IMG/VR virus record: IMGVR_UViG_3300028394_000193
Coordinates: 1-34,521 of that record
DNA: 34,521 bases
From: a virus
Lineage: Duplodnaviria; Caudoviricetes
Reading direction: 5' to 3' (one strand)
In this document: in pieces, positions 5,323 to 27,705 of the stretch
Layout of the letters: every line of letters begins with the position of its first letter
Position numbering within the stretch: the first letter of the stretch is position 1
Notes under the pieces: generated by a model
What the model saw: only the letters and a program-made list of their open reading frames with translations
Databases searched by the model: none
Told to the model about the DNA's origin: nothing
Translations under genes and position numbers: made by a program

Positions 5323-6510
5323 GTGAGTTTGGGTTGGGGCGACAGTACATGGGGTGCAAATGGCTGGGGTGGCACTCGTGCTGCAACCAGCAACCTTGCG
5401 TCTGGAACCCTTGGAACTTTTGGGAAAAGTCAGACAGTAGCTTTAAACTCGGCTATTGCAAACGGGGCAGTAAACACAACAGCTTCAATCAAATCAAAAG
5501 CTTTAACATCTAGCCTCGCTTCCGGTTCAATTGGAACAGTCACAACCAGCCGTTCATTAGCTTTAACATCTGCTTTAACAACTTATGGCTGGGGTGACAA
5601 TACATGGGGGGCAGGTGGTTGGGGTGGAATACTACCAAACGCCTTAGTATCTTCTGTTGTTGCAACTTATTCTTTCCCACTAACTGGGTTAGAGGCTTCT
5701 GGGACTGTTGGATACGTTACAAGATCTCCGGCATTAACAAATGTTCTTGGATCTGGGTTTGTAGGTAGCGTAACGACAAGTAGGGTTGTTGGTTTAAATG
5801 GAACTAGCGCAACTGGGGCGGTAGGTTTTGTATCCAAGTTAATTCAAATAACGGCTGTGTTGACATCGGGTACGGTTGGTAGCATAACCACATCCAGATC
5901 GTTAGGTTTAAACAGCACATTAGCAACCGGGACAATGGGCAATGTAGGTTTAAATTTAAGCAAAGCTCTTACAAATGTAATTGCAAACGGAGCGGTCAAT
6001 TCTGTATCTCCAACTCAGTTTTTAACGAATGTACTGGCAACAGGTTTGATCGGAACAGTTAAAGGTTCTGTTAGCCCATCTTTAATTGGCGCTCAGGCAA
6101 ATGGGTTTGCTGGGGATATAACGTCAAGCCCAACCATCCAGTTGTCTAGTGCGTCGGCTTCGGGACTAGTTGGAAAGTTGGTTGCCGCGCCACCTTTAAA
6201 CAACGTTCGTGCGTCTGGACTTGTTGTGGCTCCGGGGGTTACAATATCAATGCCCATTAGTGGAGTTGATTCGCTGGGGTCCGCTGGGTCTATGAGAGTA
6301 GGCGTAAACATACAGGGTGTGGCAGCAACCGGCGGTGCTGGCAATGTGGTATTTAACAAAGTTTTTCAGTTATCCGGAGTGTCAGCAAGAGGTGATGTAG
6401 GCAACATGGGATACCGTTATTGGGTAAACATTGACGATACTCAGACACCCAATTGGACACCCATTGACAACCAAGAATCGCCATTCTGGACGGAAATCAC
6501 GACAATTTAA
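5323..6510 (+). CDS. Repetitive beta-rich virion fibre-like protein (basic paralogue)
   Basis: Same repeat unit and C-terminal W..ID..Q.PNW motif as the upstream gene. SD GAGGTGA at 5312-5318 favours GTG 5323 over TTG 5320 as the start. Confidence 0.65.
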   Translation: MSLGWGDSTWGANGWGGTRAATSNLASGTLGTFGKSQTVALNSAIANGAVNTTASIKSKALTSSLASGSIGTVTTSRSLALTSALTTYGWGDNTWGAGGWGGILPNALVSSVVATYSFPLTGLEASGTVGYVTRSPALTNVLGSGFVGSVTTSRVVGLNGTSATGAVGFVSKLIQITAVLTSGTVGSITTSRSLGLNSTLATGTMGNVGLNLSKALTNVIANGAVNSVSPTQFLTNVLATGLIGTVKGSVSPSLIGAQANGFAGDITSSPTIQLSSASASGLVGKLVAAPPLNNVRASGLVVAPGVTISMPISGVDSLGSAGSMRVGVNIQGVAATGGAGNVVFNKVFQLSGVSARGDVGNMGYRYWVNIDDTQTPNWTPIDNQESPFWTEITTI

Positions 6511-8470: not shown

Positions 8471-8545
8471 CACCCCGGTAGGGGTGTCATTGTGCCCTCA
8501 CAATACTGTGATATTAGCTGGGTTCCCCAATAAGGAACCCAGCTA
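8470..8545 (+). promoter_or_regulatory. Structured intergenic leader, including a 12-bp hairpin occluding the RBS/start of the phosphoesterase
   Basis: Hairpins are ACACCCC-GGTA-GGGGTGT (8470-8487), ATTGTG-CCCT-CACAAT (8489-8504) and TAGCTGGGTTCC-CCAATAA-GGAACCCAGCTA (8515-8545). The last covers the GGA of the SD and the A of ATG. Confidence 0.7.
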
Positions 8546-9501
8546 TGATAGTCAAGGTATCTGATAAAGACTTCTTGGAGGCTTGGGAAAAGCACAAGTC
8601 CCCGGCAGCACTTGCAAAGTTGTTTAAAATGTCTGAACGCCGCGTCCACAGCAGGCGACGTTCATTAGAAAACCGTTTAAACATCAAGCTCACTGCTGAA
8701 AAACTAATCCCACCACACCTAAAGAAAGCCCGCCATCAAGCAGGTTTAACAGACGGGATAGTTCTAGTATTTAGTGATGCCCACTTCTGGCCCGGCATCA
8801 GAAGCACCGCGTTTAAAGGTCTTCTGTGGGCAATCAAAGAACTCAAGCCCCACGTCATCATTAACAACGGAGACGCATTTGATGGTGCCGCGATCAGCAG
8901 ATATCCTAGAATTGGTTGGGGTCATCAGCCCTCGGTTCGACAGGAGCTAGAAGCTTGTCAGGAAGCTCTAGGAGAGATTGAAAAAGCAGCACACAAGGCT
9001 AGGCACCACACACAACTGATATGGCCTTTGGGCAATCATGACAGCCGATTTGAGACTAAGTTAGCTCAGTCGGCATCAGAGTTTGAAGGGGTTTCAGGTT
9101 TATCTCTCAAAGACCATTTCCCCAAATGGCATGCTTGTTGGTCATGTTGGTTAACTGATAACGTGATTGTCAAACACCGATATAAGGGTGGCATTCACGC
9201 TACGCATCAGAATACCCAGTCAGCCGGGATTTCGATAGTAACTGGGCATCTACACAGTTTAAAATGTACCCCGTACAGTGACTACCGGGGCACGAGATTT
9301 GGGGTCGATACCGGAACATTGGCAGAGATCGATGGTCCACAGTTTATGGACTATCTGGAAGATTCGCCTGTAAACTGGAGATCTGGCTTCGCGGTTCTTA
9401 CATTCAAGGACTCAAAGATGTTATGGCCGGAGTTGGTAAGTAAGCACGAAGATGGGATAATAGACTTTCGTGGTCAACTCATTGATGTAAGTGGGTTCTA
9501 A
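8545..9501 (+). CDS. Calcineurin-like metallophosphoesterase with N-terminal HTH-like region
   Basis: Full motif set: SDAH, GDAFD, GNHD, H (KHRY), GHLH. Confidence 0.9.
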   Translation: MIVKVSDKDFLEAWEKHKSPAALAKLFKMSERRVHSRRRSLENRLNIKLTAEKLIPPHLKKARHQAGLTDGIVLVFSDAHFWPGIRSTAFKGLLWAIKELKPHVIINNGDAFDGAAISRYPRIGWGHQPSVRQELEACQEALGEIEKAAHKARHHTQLIWPLGNHDSRFETKLAQSASEFEGVSGLSLKDHFPKWHACWSCWLTDNVIVKHRYKGGIHATHQNTQSAGISIVTGHLHSLKCTPYSDYRGTRFGVDTGTLAEIDGPQFMDYLEDSPVNWRSGFAVLTFKDSKMLWPELVSKHEDGIIDFRGQLIDVSGF

Positions 9502-15534: not shown

Positions 15535-16674
15535 ATGCCTAATTTCTTTAACCCATCGCTGTCAAACACGCCAAGATATAAAGGGGAAACCTCAACTCCC
15601 GGCGTAACTCCATATGCAGAAGACCTTCTAAAGCGCGGGCAAGCATTTACAAGCGCGGGAGTTCCTGTTTACGGCGGTCAGTTAACCACTGGACCGTCTA
15701 GCTATCAGAACCAAGCTTGGCAAGGGCTGTCTAACCTAACGCTTCCTAAGAATCTTACAGAAGCAGGGACCGCACTAGGGAATATCTCTAGTCAACAGCA
15801 GGGCCTTTCTTACGATCCAACTAAATTTACTACTGGCACATTTGGAAACGAACAAGCTCTTCAGTACATGAATCCGTACATTGAAGCAGCTTTAAATCCT
15901 CAATTGGATTTGTTGCAGCGCAGAGCAGCCATAAACCAACAAGCTGATATGGCTAAGTTAGCACAGGCTGGCGCGTTTGGAGGCTCTAGGCAAGCAATTC
16001 TTCAGGGCTTAACCCAAGAGAACTTGCTTAGGGAACAGGCAGCAACTGCCGGTACTGGGTATGAAAAGGCTTATAACGCCGCTATGGCTCAGTTTAATGC
16101 CGATCAAGCGCGAGATATGGAGGCTCAAAAAGCTTCTGAACAAAGCAAGCAATATGGCGCTGGATATAAACAGACTGGGTTATCGAATGCGGCAAGCGCA
16201 GAACAGGCAAGAGCAGCAGTAGGTGCCAATGAAGCTCAGTATGGTTTGCAAAATTTAAACGCTCTTTCTGCTGCTGGCGCTCAACAGCAAGAGCTTGAGC
16301 AAGCCGCCTTGAATGCTCAGTACAAAGATTGGCTACGCCAAACTGATTACCCCGGCAAGCAGCTTGACATGCAAAAGGGGCTTATTAGCTCATTGGCTCC
16401 CTATATGCCTAAGAGTGAAGTTGCATATGGTCAGAAAGAAAGCGGTTTGCAACAAACTGCTGGCGGCGTAGCAGCAATTACAAAACTTGCCAAAGACATG
16501 GGCATTAACTCTTATACTGATTTAGCAAAAGCGTTTGGCACTTCTGTTGATGCATTGAAAGGTGTATTTGGTATCACTGCGGCTTCAAGTGCTGGCTATG
16601 CTGACGATGAGTTTTCTCTAGCGGCTGAAGGTGGGTTGGCTGGTATGCTACACAAGATGCGAGGTCAAAAATGA
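15535..16674 (+). CDS. Putative DNA-transfer/ejection protein (P22 gp7-like)
   Basis: QYMNPY...AGAFGGSRQAI motif, with Q/A-rich helical composition. Confidence 0.65.
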   Translation: MPNFFNPSLSNTPRYKGETSTPGVTPYAEDLLKRGQAFTSAGVPVYGGQLTTGPSSYQNQAWQGLSNLTLPKNLTEAGTALGNISSQQQGLSYDPTKFTTGTFGNEQALQYMNPYIEAALNPQLDLLQRRAAINQQADMAKLAQAGAFGGSRQAILQGLTQENLLREQAATAGTGYEKAYNAAMAQFNADQARDMEAQKASEQSKQYGAGYKQTGLSNAASAEQARAAVGANEAQYGLQNLNALSAAGAQQQELEQAALNAQYKDWLRQTDYPGKQLDMQKGLISSLAPYMPKSEVAYGQKESGLQQTAGGVAAITKLAKDMGINSYTDLAKAFGTSVDALKGVFGITAASSAGYADDEFSLAAEGGLAGMLHKMRGQK

Positions 16675-18008
16675 ACTTGATTCAAATCACTGAACAGTTG
16701 AAGAACCCCGCTATTAGCGTTCCTCAGTTGATGCAGTACGCAAACAACTCCAACCCTCAAGTGCCTTCATATGTTGCCCTCGCAGAAATGCAAAGACGGC
16801 AATCTATGCAAGCACCTGCACAAGCTCCTCAACAGACAGTGAAAGATCAGCTTGGCGCACAGCTAATGGGATTACCTGCTGCCCCCGGTGCAAATCCCGG
16901 TGCTGCACCGCAACAATCTCCGCAACAGCCGCAGGGAGCACAACCTCCGCCTATGCAGACTCCAATGCCGCAATCCCAACCTGCACTTCCCACTCAACCG
17001 GGAATGATGCCGGGGATGGCTGGCGGCGGTCTGACATCCATCCCTTTAAATTATGCTTCCGGTGGAATGATTGCTTTTGCTGATGGTGGATACCCTGCTG
17101 GGTATGAACTCCCGCAAGAGAAGACACTTGAAGATATTCGTTTGGAACGTGAAGCAGAAGAGCTTAAGCGAGGGATATCCCGAGATCCATACGCAGATGT
17201 TAAACGCCGCTACGCCGAAATCGAGGCAAGGCAAAAAGAAGCCGAGAAGGGCGCTGGCGCTAACAAAATAATTTCTTCTCTTGCTGCTATGGGTGCTGGT
17301 GGCCCACGCCAGTTTGGTGATGTTATGGCTTCATATGCCAATACATCCACAAACATTGAAAAAGAACAGCAGAAGCTTTCAGAGCAGAACGCTATGAAGA
17401 TGGCGGATCTTCAAATGGCATTTGCCGAGAAAGAAGATGCTCGACGTAGGGGTGATTTGACTGGCGACCGCGCAGCGGAAGACAAGATTAAAACTTTACA
17501 AAGGGAAATTCTTGGACTTCGTCATCAGTACAAACAAGCTGAAGCTCAAACAACATCGGCTGGTGCCTCTGCTAAACAAGCAGAAACTCAAGCAAGCAAA
17601 GAAGCTTTTGACCAACAAAACTATCCAAAAGAGTTTGCACTCAAACAACAAGAAGTCCGAGCAAGGGTTGCTAACGCATTGCAAAAACCCGGCGAACTTC
17701 AGGTTATTGACAACATATATGCAGCACTAAAAGCAAAAGATCCAAAAGCAAGTTATCTTGATGCTGTTGAAAGTTATAAAATGGCCGGTGCCGGGGTTAA
17801 CAAATCCGGTGTGCTTACATTCAAAGATGCTCTTGAACTAGCAGGTAAGAATCCTTTGCTTAAAGGTGATGCCTTGATTCAAGAGGCAAAGAGACTGATG
17901 GCTGGTCAAAGTGGTGGGGTTGCTGGGTTGCCTAGACCATCTGCCGGTAAAAGCCCTTACTCTGATAAATCTGACGCTGAAATCAAAGCTGCACTAGGAA
18001 TCAAATAA
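16671..18008 (+). CDS. Putative internal virion/ejection protein
   Basis: P/Q-rich N-terminal region, YASGG/FADGG motifs and a long coiled coil. It is coupled to the giant gene by TAATG. Confidence 0.6.
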   Translation: MNLIQITEQLKNPAISVPQLMQYANNSNPQVPSYVALAEMQRRQSMQAPAQAPQQTVKDQLGAQLMGLPAAPGANPGAAPQQSPQQPQGAQPPPMQTPMPQSQPALPTQPGMMPGMAGGGLTSIPLNYASGGMIAFADGGYPAGYELPQEKTLEDIRLEREAEELKRGISRDPYADVKRRYAEIEARQKEAEKGAGANKIISSLAAMGAGGPRQFGDVMASYANTSTNIEKEQQKLSEQNAMKMADLQMAFAEKEDARRRGDLTGDRAAEDKIKTLQREILGLRHQYKQAEAQTTSAGASAKQAETQASKEAFDQQNYPKEFALKQQEVRARVANALQKPGELQVIDNIYAALKAKDPKASYLDAVESYKMAGAGVNKSGVLTFKDALELAGKNPLLKGDALIQEAKRLMAGQSGGVAGLPRPSAGKSPYSDKSDAEIKAALGIK

Positions 18009-21000
18009 TGGCCGATTTGGATTTGCTGCTTGAAGCCGAGCGTCGAGGTCTGCTGCCCGCTGATAAACAAGGTCTTTTAAACGAGGCGCGGTCCAGAGGT
18101 TTGATTGGTGGTGGGATTCAATCCCTAAAGCAACCACCTAAAGAGCGCACTTGGGGTGAAGCGGCAACTGATATTGCGGCAAGCGTTGGTAAAGGCTTAG
18201 GTCAAACCCTACAGGTTCCGGGTCAGTTGTATGGACTGATTACCGGAGATATGGAGACTCCGCAGGGGCCTCCGCAAAACACAGAAGAAGCCCAAAAAGC
18301 TTTAGTAAGAGGGGCGGGTAACGCTGTTATGCCGGGAATGACTGGCATTCAGGGTCTTGGTAAACGACTTGAGGAATATTCCGAATCTAAGAAATCTGAC
18401 GTTCTAAAAGCCAAAGAGGCAGAGCGCAATCGTCTTATTCAAGAAGCAGAAAGCAAAGGTCTTTTGGAACAGGCAAAAGCCGCTGGCGCTGCAACCATTA
18501 CAGACCCCGCTCTTTTGACCAGCTTCTTGGCAGAGATGGCACCTAATATGTTGCCGGTTGGGGCTGCTGCGCGGCTTGGACGGGGCGTGGTGCTTGGCGG
18601 ACAACTCGCCAAAGGGGTTGGACGAGAAGCTGCTGAATTGGCGGCGCAGAAGGCTGGAACCCGCGCAGCATTAGGCACTGGCGCTGTCATGCAAGGCGCT
18701 GATGTAGGTACAGACACCTATGAAGAGGCATACAGAGAACTTATTGCTAAGGATGTTCCTCCAGACCAAGCAAAGCAAAGAGCTTTAAACCTTGCGCGAG
18801 CTTCTGGTCTTAGTGCCGCTGCGGTCTCTCTGTTAGCCCAAAAACTTCCCGGCGCACGGCGATTGGAAGAATCGTTTGCCGGTAAGGCAGGTGTTGCAGG
18901 ACGCGCTGTCGGTGCTGTCAAAACAGGGCTTGGAGAAAGTTACTCTGAAGGGTTTGAAGAAGCTGGCGGCGCATTTGGCAAGAACCTTGCAATGCGCGAC
19001 ATCAACCCTGAGTATGACCTAACCAAAGGGGTTGGCACGGCAGGGGCGTTAGGTGCTATTGGTGGGGTTGGTCTTGGTGGCGTCGCCGGTGCTTTGCAAA
19101 GACAGGCACCTACAGAAATGCCCAAAGAGGTTCCCCCGATACCAGAGCCTACAGAACCAAAAACGGTTGAGCCATTACGGATTGGGTACAGCCCAACGGT
19201 TGAAGATGTGGTTGAGAAAGACACTCTTCAAAACCCCGTGGGCAACTTCACGCCTAACGAACTCACACCTGAGATTGTGAAGTTTGTTAACAACCTTAGG
19301 AAAGAAGAAGGCAAACCTAAGCTCAAGGCATTCTCTATTGAAGACCTTGTAGAAGCTGGTGCTCCTCCGCAAGAGATTGACCGTTTGCTTGCCTATAAGA
19401 ATCAGTTTGATGGATCGGTAACGCTCTCGGCAGCAGATGTAACTAACATTGCACAACAACGCAATGTAGATACTGAAACCAAAGGGTTTACAGATTTCCT
19501 TCGCAGGGCTACGGGGCAGGAAGATTTAACCCAGATGTCGCAGCCGCAGCTACATTCTGCGTTTGTTGCTTTAAACGCTCTTGATACGTCGCCGGAGCTT
19601 AGGGTTCTTCCTGAAGGAACCAACGCAGTTCGTTTCACTGACAAGCAATACGACAGAGGTCTTAGGGGTGTTGCATTTCAACTTGGTCAAAGTCCTGCTG
19701 TAGGGAGGACTAGTGTCATTCAACAAATCAAAGACTACACGGGACTTGAGAATGATCAAGATGCTCATGTTTTACTTCGTACAGCCATTAGGAATGGTGA
19801 TCTTGAATCAAAGCGCGTACCTCAGTATGAAGTTGTAAATAATGAAGGTAAGGTTCAGTGGGTTAGTAATAGCAGGGAAGCTGCGTTGCGCGGTGCGGAA
19901 AAACGCGGGTTCAACGTTCGCGATGGATTCCGTGAAGAGATCTCATACCCCGGAGAGGCCACGCAACTACCCGGAGGCCCCGACATTCGCATGGGGATGT
20001 TTCAAGAAGGCGAAAGACCAGAGGGCTTTGAAATCAAAGCTGGAAGCACTGTTCTTAGTGTTTCTAACAATGAGACTGATGCCAACGAAAAAGCTGCGCG
20101 GCTAAGTGCTTTACGTGAGCAAGAAGCCAAAAGCACACAAAAGAATATTAACGAACTTAACAAAAAGATTCTTGCCAGCCAGAATGAACTTGAGCGGATG
20201 GAGGCCACCGGGCAGGGGAATTCATTAGAGTTTGCTCAACTGTCCGCAAGTGTCAACGCAGACAACCAAGCTCTTGTAGACCAGACCAACCAGCTAAAGA
20301 AAGATTTAAACGACTATCAGCAGCCAGTCACAGTAGTTCCAACCAAGTCCGTTACCCCTATCGTTCGTGAAGGGTTCACCTTCTTTGATAACGGCGCAGC
20401 GGTTGCATCCTTTCCAACGCAACAGCAAGCAGAAGAGTTTGCTCTTGCCCGTTTAAACAATGAAACGCTAACCAACATTGTTAACGTTGGCCCAACCCTA
20501 AAGGGGTTGATGCCTAAGCGTCTTGCAAAGATGGCTGAAGCGGAGCTTGCCTCTCGCGGTAGGACCGAACCCGGAATTGAAGTTAAGTTTGAAGGCACTG
20601 AAGAAGAAGCACGTGAGCGGCTTGCCAAACTTGGCATCTTTTCTGCTGATGTTCAATCTAAAGTGGCAGAACTTGAGAAAGCCCTGCTACCGGCTTTGCG
20701 TAAGCTTGGCCTTGAGCGAGTTGCTTTAAACATTGTAAGAGAGATTGAGAACAACGCAGAGGGTAACTATGCTGCGGGGGTCATCAAAATCTCTCTGGAC
20801 AACGAACCCGGAAACTATCTGGGTGTTCTGCGCCATGAATCTATCCATGCTCTTAAAGAGTTGGGTGCCTTCACAGCTAAAGAGTGGGCAGTCCTAAACA
20901 AACAAGCTAAGGAAGTGTGGGTTCCTCAGTACATGAAGAACCGCGCAACTGAATACAAGGGCAAACAAACCTCTTTGTATGATGCCTACCGAGACATATA

Positions 21001-24000
21001 TAAAAGAAACAAACTAAAAACCGGCGAAATCACACAAGAAGAATTTAACAACAATGATCCCAAGGCGCTTGCGGGGTTTGATGAGTACATCCAAGAGGAA
21101 GCTATTGCTGAAGCTTTCCGGTATTGGAAGCCTCAAGCTGGTTTCTTTGGAAACATGGGATACCGGCTTTCCAAGATGTTTGACGCTATCAAGAATGCGT
21201 TTAAAGGTCTTGGGTTTAGAACTGCCGACTCGGTCTTTGAGAAGGTCGAAGCAGGAAAGATGCGTCCGAAGGGTGAAGGTAAGGGAGAGGCAAAGTTTTC
21301 TTTGCGTCAATACAAACTTGATATTAAACGTCAAAAACGAGTTGTTCAGGAAATTGTTGATTTGCCTGTTAATGAACAAGCTGCTATTGAGCGTGATGCT
21401 CAAGAAATGGATTTACCAAAAGCAAGGGTTGATGAGCTAATTAAACAAGTAAAGGCTGATAAAAAACGATACCCCGAGAAACAGGGCTGGGCACCGCTTG
21501 AAGTTATTGGCATTGATGTTACATTGGACGATGAAGGAAAACCAATACGCGGAACCGAGGCTCCAAAGTATAAATCTATTCCTTATGAATACAATGTTCC
21601 AACAGGAAAAAACAAAGCGCCCACAAAGGTAGACCCAATATGGTTGGGCAAAGTAACCAAAGAATTTCAAAAACTTGTTCAACAGATTTACACTAGAGCA
21701 AGCAAAGGGGACACAAACGCACAAGGAATCATTGCACATCAAACTTGGTATAAGAACGTAGCCAAAACTCTTCGTAATGAATACGGTGGTTTTGGTGATG
21801 TACTGGCAGACCTTCTTGGTGCTACAAGCCCTAACACGCCTGTTGATACCAATTGGAGATTCTCCATTGATGTGATGCGCCGATTTGTGCGTGGCGACTT
21901 TAACTCTGATTTAGAAAAGTTTTCTAAACATCTTGAAGATGGAAAGCCCGCATCTTCTTTCCCTTCACAAGATAAGATTCGCCAGATAAGTGGCAAGCTT
22001 TATGGGATGAACTCCACGAATGCAATGCTTGCACTTGTGGATGCTTGGAGGCAAATCAAACCCGGACAAGCACCCAAAGCCCGTAACTTTGCCCTTAATC
22101 TTATTGGGCAATCAAACATTGCCACAATTGACGTATGGGCTGCGCGTATGTTGCGCCGCGCCGCAAATGCCATTTCAAAAGGCGAGTACGCTCGCATCCC
22201 CCCTCCTGCGGAGAAGGGGGTTTCTGGAGTTTGGAACACAGATGCAACAGAGATTACTGGTGCGTTTGGGTTTGGCGCAGAAGTTATGCGTCAGGTTTCT
22301 GCAAACCTAAAGAAGAAGGGCATCAACATTGAACCCCCAGACCTGCAAGCAATTGCTTGGTTTGCAGAAAAGGAATTGTGGGGGACCAAGGGTTGGACTT
22401 CAAAGGTAGGGGAAGGCGGTTCGTTTGAAGAGAACATTGAAAAGAATCCAGCAGACCGCTACTTGGCTGGGCATTCAATTCAAGTTGGGGAAACCACGCC
22501 ACTTCCAGAAGACGTTTACAAAGTACAGCAGGACGTTCTTGATGTACTTCAAAAAGACCCAAGTGTTATTGCGGTTCGTGTCAAACCCACTAAGGGTTTG
22601 TACGGGGGGACGGTTGAAGAGTCATTTGATAGCGAGTGGGTTGTAGACAGAAACACGTTTAAACCTGATGTCATCGTTTCGAAGATTGCTGAAGTTTCAA
22701 AGGCCAACCAACAGTACGACATTTTTGTTTCTAGAGTTATTCCTCCTAACGAGGACAACCCCAACGCCAGACCCGGCATCGAACTGTACTTCAAGACCGA
22801 AGAAGATTTAAACAATGTAATGCCTATCCTCAAGTCCTTTACAGACAAAGGGCAGGATGGCTTTACGTTGGCTGTAGACCCACGTGCTACGGGCGATTCC
22901 AACTTGTACATGGGGGTACGGCTTCAGTACGTACCAGAAATCTCCATGCGCTGGGATGAAGAGCTTCGTGAGAAGCTAAAAAATCCTCAAGAACTTGAAA
23001 GGATTCTTGCGGAAAAAGCACAAACACTCGAAGACATTGCCAGCGAAATTTCTCAAGAAGAAGGCGTTGCTTACGCGGCAGTGTTACAGTACGACACAAT
23101 AGTAATAGGGAAGGAAAACTACGATGCCTACATTAGCGGAGCAACTTCCGGGCAAGATAGCGCGGTTGGAGAAAAAGTTTGGTTCGGACAACCGGTTCGT
23201 GAACATGTTGAAGCAGCAGCTAAACGCTATACAGCAGGGCAAGTCGACGAAGCAGTTGTACCAGATGGGGGCGAAGCAGAGGCCCGATACAGTCTTAGAC
23301 CTACAGAACCTTCCGTTCGACCCAGCACAGGCGGCGGGCGAGGCATCACTCTTGGAGAGCGACAGGAAGGAGCGGGAACGTTCAGCGGCATCCACTACGG
23401 CAAAGCCAAAACAGAAAGACTAAGCGGGAGTATGTTTGGCTCCGGCATTCGCGGAGAAGAATCCAAACGGTTAGCTCAGAGCAGGGACCCACGTATCAAG
23501 CGGCGGGTCTACTTCTACATCCCCAATGATGTTGGGTTTGTGATGCGCCCAGAAGCAGGTTTGGGCCAGCACGTTTACACGCAGACCTTTGACAACATCC
23601 TCCCCTCTGGGGATGAGATGTCTCGTCTATACCGTTCCGTAGACAAAGACTTCAATGCGTTTGAAAGCGCAGTGGTTGATGCGGGTTACGATGGATACGC
23701 AGTCCCTTCGCAAGGGATGATGGTCATTCTTAACCACAACGTTCCGGTTAAGTACGAAGGTCTTGCCAACGAACTCCGTACTCAAGGCAAGCTTGTAAAC
23801 AACAAGATTAAGTACAGCCTTCGCGCCAACCCGGCCCAGACAGAAACGCCTGAGTTTAAACAGTGGTTTGGCAAGAGCAAGATAGTCAACAAAGAAGGCG
23901 AACCCAAGGTCATGTACCACGGCACTTCCCGTGACATTACTACGTTCCGCCCTAAACAAGCTGGTGCCATTTTTGTAACTGACAACCCAGACTTTGCTCA

Positions 24001-27000
24001 TATCTTTTCTGGGTTTTCAGAAAAGTACATGGTCAAAGAGTTTGAAAACAAACTTTCAAATGAAGAAAAAAAACAACTTTTGCTTGAAGTTTTAGAGAAA
24101 ACAAAAAAAGAACTTCCGCAACTTACAGTCAAAAGACTTCTTGATAACATAAACAATTCTCAAAATCTTTATGTAGGCCCCGGCGGTTTTCTTACCCAAG
24201 CCCACTTTCTTAATGTTCCTTTTGGAAGCAATTTAGTTAAGGAAGTACAAGCTAGATTAGAGTCGCGTCAAAACATAATGCCTGTATATGTAAGGGCAGA
24301 GAATCCTTTTGACTACAAAAACGAAGAGCATGTAAACAAACTTGTAAATGCAGTATCAAAGCTTTCTGAAAATAAACAAAACGAACTGTATGATGAGTTG
24401 GGGCTTGAGCCAATAGAAAAAACTAGACTATTGGATTTTAAGAATGCTATTGAAGATGGCGTATGGGAAGCAATAGAATCGCCAGAAGTTCAGAAACTTA
24501 TTAAGAAGTTTGGGCACGACGGTTTCTACATCATAGAAGCAAAGGAAAGAAACCTTGCCGTCTATGAGCCATCGCAAATCAAATCTGCGACCGGCAACAT
24601 CGGCACATTCGACATCACCAACCCAGACATCCGTTACTCTGTCCGGGCAAATCTTCCTGCCTCCACTAACGCACGTATTGATGCGACTACGGGGCAGAGA
24701 AAAACCGAAGGGTTCATGGATCGAATCCTTAGTATCTTTAATCCTGATACCCGTGCAAAGCTTCGTGCTGGCTTTATCTTCCAGTTTGAAGCCCTTGAAA
24801 GAGGCACCAAGGCCCGCGCAGCTAAGTATGGTAACCGTGAGTACATGGCGGACGTATCTGCCACTGCCGCCGCTCTGGAGTCGATGCGGTCGAAACAGAT
24901 CGTTGCCGCCGCGATGCGTGACGGAGTTCCGGTTTACCGCAACGGCTTCACCACCACAGACAATTTAAACGGCACACAGAAGGGTCTTCTGGATATCTTC
25001 TCGCCACTTGCTGCAACTGGTGATCCGGATGTTTGGAGATGTTTCCAGTACTACGCTGGTTCTAAACGCGGAGCCAGACTAGATGCCGAAGGTCGCGAGC
25101 ATCTGTTTACACAAACGGACGTACAGGCAGCGAACGCTATGGCCGCGCAGTTTAAACGAGATGGCATAGATTTTGATGCGGTCTACAAGGAATATCAGAA
25201 ATGGAATGATGCCCTTGTTAAGTACATGAAAGATACGGGGGTTCTGTCTGCCGCCGATGCTGCGTACTTCACCAAGTTTGGGGATTACATTCCGTTCTAT
25301 CGCCAGATGGACGGCGAATCCACGGTGGGTCCTAAGATCTTCTCTGCGATTGCCGGTGTTCAGAAACCTAAAGCGTTGAAGGGTGGAACTGAAAAGCTTG
25401 GTGACTTCCTTGAGAACGTGATACGTAATGCTTCTGCCGCTGTTGATGCTGGTATGAAGAACGTTGCCGCGAATCGAGGTATTAGAGATGCGCTCGACCT
25501 TGGGACTGCGCGGCAGGTAAATGTTCCTAATCAGGACTCAGTCAGCGTTAAAGAGAACGGCGTTACCAAGCACTACGAACTTGATGACCCGCTCCTCTTT
25601 GAAGCGTTTAAAGGTCTTAACGTTCCTCGGATGCCTTGGCTACAGATTCTTGCAGCGCCAGCGGATGTGCTTCGGAACTTCGTGACCAAGGACCCCGGAT
25701 TCATTCTGGCTAACATCATGCGTGACTCTGTCTCGGCATGGGTTACCTCGGGTTCAGATATGAAGCCCGTGATTGATTCGTTTAAACAGTTTGGCAAGAT
25801 TCTTGCTAACCAATCCCCGGAAGCGGTTGCTATGGCTAAGGCCGGTCTAGGTGGGTATGAGTTTAAAGGCTCCCTCAAAGACAGCGCAGAAGCCTTTGAG
25901 AAGGCTTTGAGAGCTAAGACAGGAACCAGAACTAAGACCGAGAAAGCTTTGCTTCCAGTTACCGCTCTTTGGGACATGCTTGAGCAAGGCTCTAATGCCT
26001 CTGACTTGGCAACCCGCGCAGAGATCTATAAGCGCACTTTAGCTAAAACCGGCAACGAAGCAGAGGCACTGTTCCAAGCATCGGAGGTGATGAACTTCTC
26101 CCGCCGTGGGAGCTTCCAAGTGATGCAGATCCTTACCGCTGTCGTTCCATTTATGAACGCCCGCATCCAAGGTTTGGATGTTCTCTATCGCTCTGGGTTT
26201 GGTCAGGCCGCGAACGTTAACAAAGAGCGGATGCAGAAAGCTTTCATTGTTCGTTCTCTTTCGATCCTTGCTATGACAGCGGCTTACTGGGCATTAGTCC
26301 ATGACGATGACGAATACAAGAAACTTACAAAGGAAGAACGTGACGGATACTGGATTGTTCCGGGGCTGACCTTCAACGACAAGCCCTTCCGGTTCCCGAT
26401 CCCGTTTGAGATTGGCGTGCTGTTTAAAGTGTTCCCTGAGCGTATCCTAGAATACACAATGGGTCAGGACACCGAGAAGGACTTCAGGGAATCAATCACC
26501 CGCAACATTGTAGATACGCTCAAGTTCAATCCAATACCTCAAGCGTTCATCCCTATCTATGAAAACATCAGCAATCATTCCTTCTTTACAGGAGAGAAGA
26601 TTGTTGGTCGCGGTCTTGAGGATGTAGCTAAACCTCTTCAGTACACCGCATCCACATCACTTGGGGCGCGGTGGCTGGGAGAACAAACCGGCATGTCTCC
26701 AATACAGATAGACAACGTTATCCGGGGCTACACGGGCACAATGGGTATGTACGCGGTCAACATGCTGGACTCGGTCTTTTCGAGCCAAGGAGACCCAGTT
26801 AAAGCCACTACAAGGGCGGAGCAGTTGCCTGTTATTAAGAGGTTCTTTGCCTCTGATTCTGGTACGGTCGCTCAGTACTACGATCTGAAAGACGAGGTTG
26901 ATGAGGTTGTACGTACAGTTAATTTCTTGGAAAGAAACGATCCAGATAAGCTAGAGGAATATCTTAAAAAGAATGAGAACACTTACATGTTGAAAGACTT

Positions 27001-27169
27001 TGTAAGGTCTATTGATAAAGATATGAAACAGATTAGAGAATATCGCGGCGCGGTTAACGCAGACAAAGATATGAGTGGCGATGAAAAGCGCGTAATCCTA
27101 GATGAGCTTCATCAATACGAAGTGGCTCTAACCGCTGATATCAAGGCAATCAGAAAAGAGTTCCATTAA
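18008..27169 (+). CDS. Large polyvalent virion protein (3053 aa): zincin, HhH-GPD-like, SAM-lyase-like, two ART-like domains, LPD38
   Basis: Motifs in order: HESIH at 20834 with EEAIAE at 21095; ATSPN/PKARNF/TIDVW/LQAIAW; GLYGGTVEESF...QQYDIFV; IHYG...RVYFY...GYDGY; FKQWFGKSKIV...YHGT...QIKSATGNIGTFD; DDEYKKL...YWIVP...IPFEIG. Confidence 0.85.
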   Translation: MADLDLLLEAERRGLLPADKQGLLNEARSRGLIGGGIQSLKQPPKERTWGEAATDIAASVGKGLGQTLQVPGQLYGLITGDMETPQGPPQNTEEAQKALVRGAGNAVMPGMTGIQGLGKRLEEYSESKKSDVLKAKEAERNRLIQEAESKGLLEQAKAAGAATITDPALLTSFLAEMAPNMLPVGAAARLGRGVVLGGQLAKGVGREAAELAAQKAGTRAALGTGAVMQGADVGTDTYEEAYRELIAKDVPPDQAKQRALNLARASGLSAAAVSLLAQKLPGARRLEESFAGKAGVAGRAVGAVKTGLGESYSEGFEEAGGAFGKNLAMRDINPEYDLTKGVGTAGALGAIGGVGLGGVAGALQRQAPTEMPKEVPPIPEPTEPKTVEPLRIGYSPTVEDVVEKDTLQNPVGNFTPNELTPEIVKFVNNLRKEEGKPKLKAFSIEDLVEAGAPPQEIDRLLAYKNQFDGSVTLSAADVTNIAQQRNVDTETKGFTDFLRRATGQEDLTQMSQPQLHSAFVALNALDTSPELRVLPEGTNAVRFTDKQYDRGLRGVAFQLGQSPAVGRTSVIQQIKDYTGLENDQDAHVLLRTAIRNGDLESKRVPQYEVVNNEGKVQWVSNSREAALRGAEKRGFNVRDGFREEISYPGEATQLPGGPDIRMGMFQEGERPEGFEIKAGSTVLSVSNNETDANEKAARLSALREQEAKSTQKNINELNKKILASQNELERMEATGQGNSLEFAQLSASVNADNQALVDQTNQLKKDLNDYQQPVTVVPTKSVTPIVREGFTFFDNGAAVASFPTQQQAEEFALARLNNETLTNIVNVGPTLKGLMPKRLAKMAEAELASRGRTEPGIEVKFEGTEEEARERLAKLGIFSADVQSKVAELEKALLPALRKLGLERVALNIVREIENNAEGNYAAGVIKISLDNEPGNYLGVLRHESIHALKELGAFTAKEWAVLNKQAKEVWVPQYMKNRATEYKGKQTSLYDAYRDIYKRNKLKTGEITQEEFNNNDPKALAGFDEYIQEEAIAEAFRYWKPQAGFFGNMGYRLSKMFDAIKNAFKGLGFRTADSVFEKVEAGKMRPKGEGKGEAKFSLRQYKLDIKRQKRVVQEIVDLPVNEQAAIERDAQEMDLPKARVDELIKQVKADKKRYPEKQGWAPLEVIGIDVTLDDEGKPIRGTEAPKYKSIPYEYNVPTGKNKAPTKVDPIWLGKVTKEFQKLVQQIYTRASKGDTNAQGIIAHQTWYKNVAKTLRNEYGGFGDVLADLLGATSPNTPVDTNWRFSIDVMRRFVRGDFNSDLEKFSKHLEDGKPASSFPSQDKIRQISGKLYGMNSTNAMLALVDAWRQIKPGQAPKARNFALNLIGQSNIATIDVWAARMLRRAANAISKGEYARIPPPAEKGVSGVWNTDATEITGAFGFGAEVMRQVSANLKKKGINIEPPDLQAIAWFAEKELWGTKGWTSKVGEGGSFEENIEKNPADRYLAGHSIQVGETTPLPEDVYKVQQDVLDVLQKDPSVIAVRVKPTKGLYGGTVEESFDSEWVVDRNTFKPDVIVSKIAEVSKANQQYDIFVSRVIPPNEDNPNARPGIELYFKTEEDLNNVMPILKSFTDKGQDGFTLAVDPRATGDSNLYMGVRLQYVPEISMRWDEELREKLKNPQELERILAEKAQTLEDIASEISQEEGVAYAAVLQYDTIVIGKENYDAYISGATSGQDSAVGEKVWFGQPVREHVEAAAKRYTAGQVDEAVVPDGGEAEARYSLRPTEPSVRPSTGGGRGITLGERQEGAGTFSGIHYGKAKTERLSGSMFGSGIRGEESKRLAQSRDPRIKRRVYFYIPNDVGFVMRPEAGLGQHVYTQTFDNILPSGDEMSRLYRSVDKDFNAFESAVVDAGYDGYAVPSQGMMVILNHNVPVKYEGLANELRTQGKLVNNKIKYSLRANPAQTETPEFKQWFGKSKIVNKEGEPKVMYHGTSRDITTFRPKQAGAIFVTDNPDFAHIFSGFSEKYMVKEFENKLSNEEKKQLLLEVLEKTKKELPQLTVKRLLDNINNSQNLYVGPGGFLTQAHFLNVPFGSNLVKEVQARLESRQNIMPVYVRAENPFDYKNEEHVNKLVNAVSKLSENKQNELYDELGLEPIEKTRLLDFKNAIEDGVWEAIESPEVQKLIKKFGHDGFYIIEAKERNLAVYEPSQIKSATGNIGTFDITNPDIRYSVRANLPASTNARIDATTGQRKTEGFMDRILSIFNPDTRAKLRAGFIFQFEALERGTKARAAKYGNREYMADVSATAAALESMRSKQIVAAAMRDGVPVYRNGFTTTDNLNGTQKGLLDIFSPLAATGDPDVWRCFQYYAGSKRGARLDAEGREHLFTQTDVQAANAMAAQFKRDGIDFDAVYKEYQKWNDALVKYMKDTGVLSAADAAYFTKFGDYIPFYRQMDGESTVGPKIFSAIAGVQKPKALKGGTEKLGDFLENVIRNASAAVDAGMKNVAANRGIRDALDLGTARQVNVPNQDSVSVKENGVTKHYELDDPLLFEAFKGLNVPRMPWLQILAAPADVLRNFVTKDPGFILANIMRDSVSAWVTSGSDMKPVIDSFKQFGKILANQSPEAVAMAKAGLGGYEFKGSLKDSAEAFEKALRAKTGTRTKTEKALLPVTALWDMLEQGSNASDLATRAEIYKRTLAKTGNEAEALFQASEVMNFSRRGSFQVMQILTAVVPFMNARIQGLDVLYRSGFGQAANVNKERMQKAFIVRSLSILAMTAAYWALVHDDDEYKKLTKEERDGYWIVPGLTFNDKPFRFPIPFEIGVLFKVFPERILEYTMGQDTEKDFRESITRNIVDTLKFNPIPQAFIPIYENISNHSFFTGEKIVGRGLEDVAKPLQYTASTSLGARWLGEQTGMSPIQIDNVIRGYTGTMGMYAVNMLDSVFSSQGDPVKATTRAEQLPVIKRFFASDSGTVAQYYDLKDEVDEVVRTVNFLERNDPDKLEEYLKKNENTYMLKDFVRSIDKDMKQIREYRGAVNADKDMSGDEKRVILDELHQYEVALTADIKAIRKEFH
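23124..23423 (+). CDS. Nested out-of-frame (+1) small protein inside the giant gene
   Basis: SD AAGGA at 23111-23115, 8 nt before ATG. It begins with an amphipathic helical hairpin (TLAEQLPGKIARLEKKFG-SDN-RFVNMLKQQLNAIQQG). The main frame here is linker-like. Confidence 0.6.
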   Translation: MPTLAEQLPGKIARLEKKFGSDNRFVNMLKQQLNAIQQGKSTKQLYQMGAKQRPDTVLDLQNLPFDPAQAAGEASLLESDRKERERSAASTTAKPKQKD

Positions 27170-27705
27170 ACATTTTTCCAAGTGTGCCCTTTGGCTATAT
27201 TCCACAATGTGTGATAAGAAAACCCAGTTTCTTTTGCAAGTTTGGCTGGCGTAGATTCTTTTGATTTTAGTTTTTTAACTATATAAATTGGAACTTTAGC
27301 GGCGTGATGGTTTTCGCCTTCTGGGTAGAGACCGCGTTTTTGCCGGTCTTTCATATTTCCCTTTTGAACATCCCAACGAAGGTTTTCAATCTTGTTGTTT
27401 TCTGGATTGCTATCGTTGTGGCATGCAAGTTGCCCAAGTTTGGGTTGCCCAACAAAAGCAATTAGCATTGCTCTGCTTACAAGCATTGAGTATTTTTTAC
27501 CATTTGCACCAAATCTAAATTTTATATACCCGCATTTGTCTTTGTAAGTTGTTAATAACCTGCCTTTGTAATTTTGTTTAACCGTGGAGTTTGATAATCC
27601 ACAGTGTTTTTATACGGTTCTTGGATAGGTATAAACTCTTCCAAAATTTGAAACTGCAATAAATTCCTCAAAACCGGGCAAGTCTTTAAACTCCTCCCCT
27701 TGCAT
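27166..27705 (-). pseudogene. NUMOD4-HNH homing endonuclease interrupted by an in-frame TAA
   Basis: ATG 27705 gives MQGEEFKDLPGFEEFIAVSNFGRVYTYPRTV, then TAA (27612-27610). The same frame continues KHCG...KGRLL...GYIKF...MLVSRAMLIAFVG...CHNDSNPENNKIENLRW. Confidence 0.8.

Follow-up and report, generated by a model that had tools for sequence, protein, structure and literature searches.

A gene for a giant polyvalent protein of a tailed phage contains a small gene nested in the +1 frame, whose two modules each track one of the enzyme-like blocks carried by the giant and also occur as free genes. The nested gene is the part that is new in the description of the giant. We consider the chances about equal, for and against, that its modules are cargo-specific inhibitors which shield the producer cell and which host islands have acquired as orphan immunity. 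The window analyzed is the whole 34,521-nt stretch of IMG/VR record IMGVR_UViG_3300028394_000193, and the features given below with coordinates lie on its + strand.

Position and architecture of the giant gene

The 3053-codon open reading frame at 18008..27169 is a genuine gene, and its 3053-aa product adds a member to the established class of phage polyvalent proteins. It closes a block of + strand genes; its start overlaps the stop of the upstream gene, and its downstream neighbour is a convergent HNH gene. An upstream neighbour at 15535..16674 matches a PHROG DNA ejection family (phrog_4287, E 1.6e-10), in agreement with the original prediction that the giant is the last gene of an ejection-protein cluster. 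This neighbourhood places it among late or virion genes, as for other polyvalent proteins. A Pfam search found LPD38, ART-PolyVal and DUF7178, the first two above their own cut-offs, which is the multidomain make-up of this class. LPD38 lies near the C-terminus, as predicted (aa 2767-2942, 26306..26833; PF18857, E 2.2e-38). It is preceded by a conserved region (24650..26305; phrog_18222, phrog_9854), and a Pfam search gave no match for aa 2215-2697. The N-terminal region (aa 1-370, 18008..19117) had been described as G/A-rich and hydrophobic. The former was evident (G+A 32% vs 16% elsewhere in the protein), but a best 19-residue Kyte-Doolittle mean of 1.36 indicates only mild hydrophobicity. 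In the PDB, nothing meaningful matched the sequence of the whole giant or the profiles built from the protease, block 1 and block 2, and an atlas search matched only DUF7178 or hypothetical clusters.

The 2811-aa gp47 of phi24B, which likewise combines LPD38 and a metallopeptidase in one large protein, was detected in virions by MS and proposed to be an ejection protein (bioRxiv 10.64898/2026.04.10.717836). By this likeness, the giant is likely packaged and injected. According to the same account, as far as it was available, gp47 differs in its cargo (LPD5, LPD1) and in its peptidase, which the authors assign to peptidoglycan; that part of the account mentions no nested gene.

Exchange of cargo among relatives

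Two relatives (L004 and L042) are 91-97% identical to the giant in the N-terminus, protease, block 3, C-region and LPD38. Block 1 of the giant has no match in them; an unrelated block takes its place, and the switch falls at boundary motif 1 (FSLR, 21296..21307), which shows that the cargo is swappable, as had been proposed. Domain architecture differs among the relatives, a variability that is also characteristic of polyvalent proteins.

Predicted metallopeptidase domain and boundary motif

The predicted zincin-like metallopeptidase (20660..21277) contains an HEXXH motif and a later Glu pair: HESIH at aa 943 (20834-20848) and EEAIAE at aa 1030 (21095-21112), the former at the position that had been claimed. 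HEXXH is present in 38/38 homologues, and H, E, H and the downstream EE are invariant across 39 aligned rows, the pattern of a zincin-like motif. The motif [FY]S[LV]R was found at aa 1097, 1761, 1936 and 2210, that is, at four block edges, and so matches the repeated boundary motif of the original prediction. Copies 2 to 4 are YSLR beneath the nested gene (23288..23299), YSLR (23813..23824) and YSVR (24635..24646). A DNA repeat as the source of the motif was ruled out, since the codons differ among copies.

In our model the HEXXH domain would cut at [KR][FY]S[LIV], with the odds about even. Only slightly less probable is that the giant acts whole and uncut, like the packaged N4 virion RNA polymerase, and that domain and motif serve otherwise. 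Recurrence of the motif at all four block edges, with both serine codon families in use, its coincidence with the cargo swap point, [FYL]S at the end of block 3 in 30/38 cases and the retention of HEXXH all argue for cleavage. On the other side, the motif is degenerate (enriched only 1.5-1.9 times and absent from many junctions), and comparison of the domain with the Pfam and PDB libraries by sequence and profile returned no meaningful match that would confirm a protease fold. Moreover, according to the text of PMC5512222, peptidases of this kind are present in N4 vRNAP, ArdC and TraC1, which remain uncut when they are packaged or transferred.

Predicted folds of the cargo blocks

Block 1 is predicted to combine a fold like that of HhH DNA glycosylases with one like that of a SAM lyase, and blocks 2 and 3 are each predicted to have an ADP-ribosyltransferase fold. 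Block 1a (DUF7178, 21650..22405) has a predicted HhH-GPD glycosylase-like fold, with a middling score against Tm1821 (Z 7.2, rmsd 4.4, 180 aligned); about ten more HhH glycosylases match over the same range (Z 4.5-6.0). K1357 and D1375, invariant in 48/48, are candidates for the catalytic Lys and Asp of HhH-GPD glycosylases.

Block 1b (22448..23128) is a predicted tandem ferredoxin-like repeat, the first repeat being a putative SAM-lyase-like domain. It matched the phage SAM lyase structure 6zm9 with Z 6.8 (rmsd 3.4, 115 aligned), a score exceeded by AcrB-like ferredoxin repeats (Z 8.9); Foldseek gave the SAM lyase a probability of 1.00 at E 0.064. G1530 (48/48), E1537 (48/48) and Q1569 (46/48) are conserved and pair with the strictly conserved G56, E69 and Q104 of the SAM lyase by order, with different spacing. 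Svi3-3 and T3 SAMase have the ferredoxin-like fold predicted for block 1b and similarly placed Gly, Glu and Gln, but are described in the PMC7877911 text as free enzymes, Svi3-3 as a trimer, whereas block 1b is a putative enzyme, arranged as a tandem repeat behind an HhH domain inside the giant. Block 1 had no match among GenBank phages.

For block 2 (23354..23782; invariant H1796, Y1835, E1886), an ART/RES-like fold is predicted. The top rows of the structure comparison were nearly all ART-fold (best Z 6.7, rmsd 3.9, 119 aligned), and Foldseek gave no significant match. The nearest folds include toxins solved with their antitoxins (MbcT, NatT, ParT): the RES/ART toxin-antitoxin systems MbcTA, NatRT and ParST score Z 6.7, 6.2 and 5.0, and AcrIF11 5.5. 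Block 2 differs from all four in its H-Y-D-type residues, H and Y being invariant among 62 giants and D present in 48/62. Block 3 (23840..24622) is an ART-PolyVal domain with an insert (PF18760, E 2.2e-18). The predicted folds thus agree with the proposed glycosylase/SAM-lyase block and two ART folds, although at middling scores (Z 6.7-7.2) and with no Foldseek E below 0.001.

A conserved gene nested in the +1 frame

The nested gene (23124..23423) encodes 99 aa from an ATG that follows, at a distance of 8 nt, a Shine-Dalgarno-like AAGGA (23111..23115); an SD-like word is found in 33/49 relatives. Its N-module (23124..23279) is tied to block 1, and its C-module motif, DLQNLPFDPA (23298..23327), to block 2. 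At this locus the +1 frame is open in 49/49 relatives selected on the main frame, the +2 frame in 2/49, and the ATG is kept in 46/49, these and the counts below being drawn from phylogenetically non-independent relatives. Random positions show an SD-ATG with an ORF of at least 45 codons at only 1.2%. The nested +1 ORF is far beyond chance.

An identity comparison of 96% vs 48% is circular, because the loci were chosen on the motif, and main-frame-selected sets were used instead. Among 632 pairs, +1 identity exceeded main-frame identity in 79%. In the motif region it is the frame of the small gene that is constrained, and the linker of the giant drifts. The original prediction of an overprinted small gene holds as to a real gene and is revised as to its nature: a fusion of two modules, read in the constrained frame, that also exists free of cargo. 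The nested protein had no match among GenBank phages, no internal sigma-70 promoter was found near the gene, and block 3 showed no convincing nested gene within this window. Further +1 ORFs inside the giant, at 21054-21440 and 24555-24968, lack an SD-ATG.

Association of the modules with cargo

The N-module accompanies the SAM-lyase-like domain in 49/49 relatives chosen on the main frame, and different upstream cargo clades have different N-modules. The C-module motif (DLQNLPFDP) occurs in 50/62 giants with block 2, the other 12 being without it, and in 1/50 block-1 proteins lacking block 2; in the +2 frame there were 0 matches over 175,337 codons. In 14 of the 50 motif-bearing giants the motif lies farther upstream, in 12 of these across an inserted domain. 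Within the block-1 set, 6/7 block-2 carriers are without the motif, and a 2x2 test on this set alone was not significant (p 0.23). A strict test of +1 compatibility found 7/120 compatible; a relaxed protein-only version (p 0.83) was too permissive and was dropped. Cargo shuffling fuses the N- and C-modules where blocks 1 and 2 adjoin. The small gene is closely linked to a putative effector, as in toxin-immunity pairs. Because the modules overlap or abut the cargo, physical linkage alone accounts for much of the co-occurrence, of the N-module especially.

Free-standing copies

Cargo-free copies of the nested modules were found at 27 loci, with no cargo homologue across 146 kb. Several lie on integrase-bearing bacterial islands, with integrase, AlpA, primase and HNH genes as neighbours; orphan copies on mobile elements are likewise known from toxin-immunity systems. 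The DNA match of the free copies is restricted to the nested gene, and one locus (L033) still has a relic of the following cargo, interrupted by a stop. The free copies examined for pN/pS are under purifying selection (0.09-0.12 in L007-L010; 0.36 in L030/L048).

Discussion

Since the N- and C-halves each track one enzyme block and occur alone on islands, they are likely candidates for antidotes to those enzymes. The giant has a constant framework, made up of the N-terminus, the HEXXH domain and the LPD38 end, and middle blocks that are exchanged among relatives. In the mechanism that we propose, the giant, by homology, would be packaged late and ejected with the phage DNA. The conserved +1 gene begins where block 1b ends; its N-module accompanies block 1 and its C-module block 2, the two being fused where the blocks are adjacent. 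It would be translated off the same late mRNA as the giant. In the producing cell, the peptides would keep the SAM-, NAD- and DNA-damaging cargo inactive by binding it; they would be left out of the virion, leaving the cargo free to act in the next host. The cargo-free copies, several of them on integrase-bearing islands, may have been captured from giant genes and would act as orphan immunity against injected enzymes. A broader version, a hidden out-of-frame immunity code in which each cassette has its antidote in the linker, shuffling makes chimeras and islands steal and string antidotes together as anti-phage defence, seems to us somewhat less probable than the core proposal.

Alternatively, the peptides could be independent host-directed effectors, mimicking short motifs from within tolerant linkers, that never touch the cargo and whose activity the islands keep. 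This is unlikely, though a serious competitor: it fits the short motifs within variable flanks, the large N-module family (441 clusters at E up to 0.001) and the conservation of free copies without nearby cargo, and co-occurrence could stem from linkage. It does not predict that the C-motif follows block 2 across inserted domains and is nearly absent without it, or that distinct upstream cargo clades have distinct N-modules. Less probable still is a role as chaperones or packaging adaptors, each specific to one cargo and bound to the giant without inhibiting it; such peptides would show the same cargo tracking and would suit co-translation from a single mRNA, but would leave purifying selection on cargo-free copies unexplained, unless those are decoys against helper phage. 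That the ORF is a mere shadow of main-frame conservation, its SD and ATG coming from conserved main-frame codons where block 1b ends, is highly improbable given a +1 frame more conserved than the main frame and free copies with stops in both other frames and a synonymous excess.

The inhibitor reading has parallels in known systems. Polymorphic toxins have swappable effectors, a small linked partner and orphan immunity genes alone on mobile islands. The giant resembles them in its swappable effector-like blocks, linked small gene and lone partner copies on islands; it differs in that its carrier would be a protein of the phage particle, the small partner gene lies within the carrier gene in another frame, and immunity is a putative function. 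Unlike in MbcTA, NatRT and ParST, the putative antidote of block 2 is a short peptide encoded in another frame of the very gene that carries the putative enzyme. In lambda, Rz1 is embedded in Rz on the same strand in the +1 frame, as a fixed lysis pair; the nesting here is the same, but the modules reshuffle with the cargo and escape as free genes.

A literature search, which covered few subscription papers, found no publication describing genes nested within those of polyvalent proteins. That polyvalent proteins enter with the DNA and process themselves was already proposed by Iyer et al. 2017 (PMC5512222), whose proteins are large late-gene products joining ART domains and LPD38 to a zincin-like peptidase, the make-up predicted here for the giant. 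The main text of PMC5512222 has 0 matches for 'glycosylase', 'lyase' and 'overlapping', and no counterpart of block 1, block 2 or the nested genes was found in it; nor does that text support cyanophage A4 gp26/gp27 as a precedent for nesting.

If true, the proposal would explain how a phage can make large amounts of enzymes that attack SAM, NAD and DNA and yet spare the cell that produces it, and would add a layer of the arms race unseen by gene callers, with anti-anti-defence through orphan peptides. Each nested module would flag its target domain, so that uncharacterised polyvalent domains could be cloned and tested as effector-inhibitor pairs. Even without an immunity role, a conserved family of small genes has been overlooked wherever such giants are annotated.

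The giant gene and its setting

The open reading frame at 18008-27169 (+) encodes a giant protein of 3053 aa. It is the last gene of a plus-strand block with tail-fibre, lysis, virion and ejection genes, and its ATG overlaps the stop of the upstream gene; recombination genes lie on the minus strand. The window spans an entire virus record, which is classed as linear and has an estimated completeness of 60%. An HNH-type gene (27166-27486, minus strand) is convergent with the giant gene and overlaps it by 4 bases, and a metallophosphoesterase gene (8545-9501, plus strand) has tail-fibre genes on one side and lysis genes on the other.

Every motif that the original prediction had claimed for the giant was found when checked, and Pfam recognised DUF7178, ART-PolyVal and LPD38. 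This domain layout is that of the polyvalent proteins, for which Iyer et al. 2017 (PMC5512222) already propose injection and self-processing. The giant is one more member of this known class. Because of this layout, and because a phi24B protein with LPD38 and a metallopeptidase was found in virions, packaging of the giant into the virion is likely by analogy.

Predicted folds of the cargo blocks

The enzyme folds proposed for the three cargo blocks held in part: HhH-GPD-like, ART-like and ART-PolyVal matches were obtained, but the SAM-lyase match ranked below AcrB-type repeats. The structure model of block 1 (aa 1118-1712) has a pLDDT of 92. Its first part resembles HhH-GPD glycosylases, the best match reaching Z 7.2 with an rmsd of 4.4 over 180 aligned residues. 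The second part is modelled as a tandem ferredoxin-like repeat, which matches the phage SAM lyase 6zm9 (Z 6.8) and T3 SAMase (Z 5.5) and is outscored by AcrB-type repeats (Z up to 8.9); Foldseek gave the SAM-lyase match a probability of 1.00 but an E of 0.064. G1530, E1537 and Q1569, kept in 46-48 of 48 aligned rows, echo three strictly conserved SAM-lyase residues (PMC7877911). For block 2 (pLDDT 89), the best structural matches were ART-fold chains almost throughout, headed by MbcT (Z 6.7), and Foldseek returned nothing significant. Block 3 is ART-PolyVal. The enzyme roles of all three blocks are predicted from fold and sequence.

Block-2 homologues also stand alone outside giants, in frames of 215-246 codons (loci L116, L117, L122-L124). 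Residues 1277-1609 of PDB 9k3a chain B, an ejection protein of cyanophage A4 (probably gp27), resemble block 2 (Z 4.7); the main text of the A4 paper makes no mention of ADP-ribosylation.

Cargo swapping and possible processing

The homologous loci L004 and L042 share 91-97% identity with the giant over five regions; the values are lower for aa 371-880 (72%) and for block 2 (71%). No match to block 1 was found in them, and the switch point is at the first boundary motif, [FY]S[LV]R, as expected for swappable cargo bounded by a repeated motif. Block 1 is common to 633 giants, and the remaining domains vary among the 120 of these that were listed. Since both serine codon families are used for the motif in the window, it is kept as protein. 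Among 87 non-redundant giants, the motif is enriched 1.5-1.9 times, and [FYL]S is found where block 3 ends in 30 of 38 cases and where the protease ends in 18 of 28. HEXXH is present in all homologues (38/38), and the giant's HEXXH domain had no naming match in any library searched. Iyer et al. cite both cut and uncut examples (PMC5512222); for the giant, cleavage is about an even bet.

A nested gene in the +1 frame

The predicted hidden gene at 23124-23423 proved to be real, judged by sequence conservation. It has an ATG start and an SD-like AAGGA, and 13 of 14 candidates were gene-called homologues. As loci picked on the nested motif would be circular, two locus sets were selected on the main frame. 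The first comprised 80 loci chosen by block-1a motifs (the glycosylase-like part); after removal of duplicates, loci unaligned to the end of block 1b (the ferredoxin-like part) and loci without a match, 49 distinct loci remained. Beyond this end, the +1 frame was open for at least 40 codons in 49/49, the +2 frame in 2/49. An ATG was present in 46 and an SD in 33 of the 49; an SD-ATG with an ORF of at least 45 codons occurs at 1.2% of random positions. The products form a recognisable family of 55-65 aa, even where block 1b is only 27-30% identical, and a profile search with this N-module family yielded 441 clusters. Across 100 giants, 632 pairs from an 88-member cluster were compared, and in 79% of them the +1 frame had a higher identity than the main frame. 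The same held for three more nested +1 families (L037/L058/L060/L067; L098-L102; L082/L087/L094/L121).

One of these further families directly follows an HhH-like domain without the SAM-lyase part. Block 1 also occurs in shorter frames of 870-1200 aa with the N-module nested close to the end (many loci, L142-L205). In L002, a 79-aa antisense ORF (6079-6318, minus strand) lies inside a giant behind another cargo, which we take to be RelA/SpoT-like; it looks like a real small protein, and nesting may occur on the opposite strand too.

Nested modules track their cargo

The second set comprised 77 loci picked by block-2 sequence outside the overlap with the nested gene, reduced to 62 distinct giants by removing 9 duplicate or short loci and 6 non-giants. 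A DLQNLPFDP-type motif was found in the +1 frame of 50 of the 62. In 36 of these it lies no more than 75 codons from block 2, in the other 14 farther upstream (12 with an inserted domain between); the +2 frame gave 0 matches over 175,337 codons. As the loci counted here and in the first set are related, the counts show retention rather than independent events. Among 57 block-1 proteins, the pattern occurred in 1/50 without block 2 and in 1/7 with it, and the latter value counts against strict coupling. Since each half tracks its own block in the two sets, the window's nested gene is a fusion of a block-1 and a block-2 module. In other giants, the block-2 module is joined to other N-modules. 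Ahead of another cargo, of no Pfam family, there is a nested third module with AFGF at its end (L065 near 4280, L092 near 5225).

Free copies outside giants

The 38 metagenome loci comprise the contig of the window itself, 15 nested copies and 22 free ones; all five genome loci are free, four of the records being labelled betaproteobacterial MAGs. No cargo homologue was found in the 27 free loci, which together cover 146 kb; three of them (L023-L025) are fragments and one (L021) is ambiguous. Seven (L010, L011, L016, L019, L041, L044, L048) carry an integrase, with AlpA, primase, Mob or HNH as neighbours. The AFGF module is also free, immediately behind the free copy in L007-L011 (L007 523-714). 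L007-L010 match the window DNA at 71-72%, solely within the nested gene; comparisons among these four give 13-17 synonymous versus 5 non-synonymous changes (small numbers). Capture from giants is suggested by L033: its copy shares 88% and 77% identity with the nested genes in two giants, and at its end there is a remnant of the following cargo, cut off by a stop. Two proteins of 165-169 aa (P0135, P0157) chain three nested-type modules and are possible poly-immunity genes.

A possible role for the nested peptides

None of the papers listed by the literature searches deals with nested genes in polyvalent proteins. The locus adds three things: modules that go with particular cargo, the joining of such modules at junctions, and copies that occur as orphans. 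The main rival reading, that the peptides are independent host-directed products carried along by linkage, seems rather unlikely to us. That they silence their own cargo, which would account for the cargo tracking as well as the orphan copies, we hold to be evenly poised between right and wrong. Over-expressed SAM lyases are toxic (PMC7877911) and RES-type ARTs destroy NAD (PMC9503650). If a giant is produced in large amounts late in infection, domains of this kind would have to be silenced. A peptide from the same mRNA would do this in the producing cell, would be inherited with its cargo cassette and would stay behind at packaging; on a host island, the same peptide would blunt the injected enzyme.
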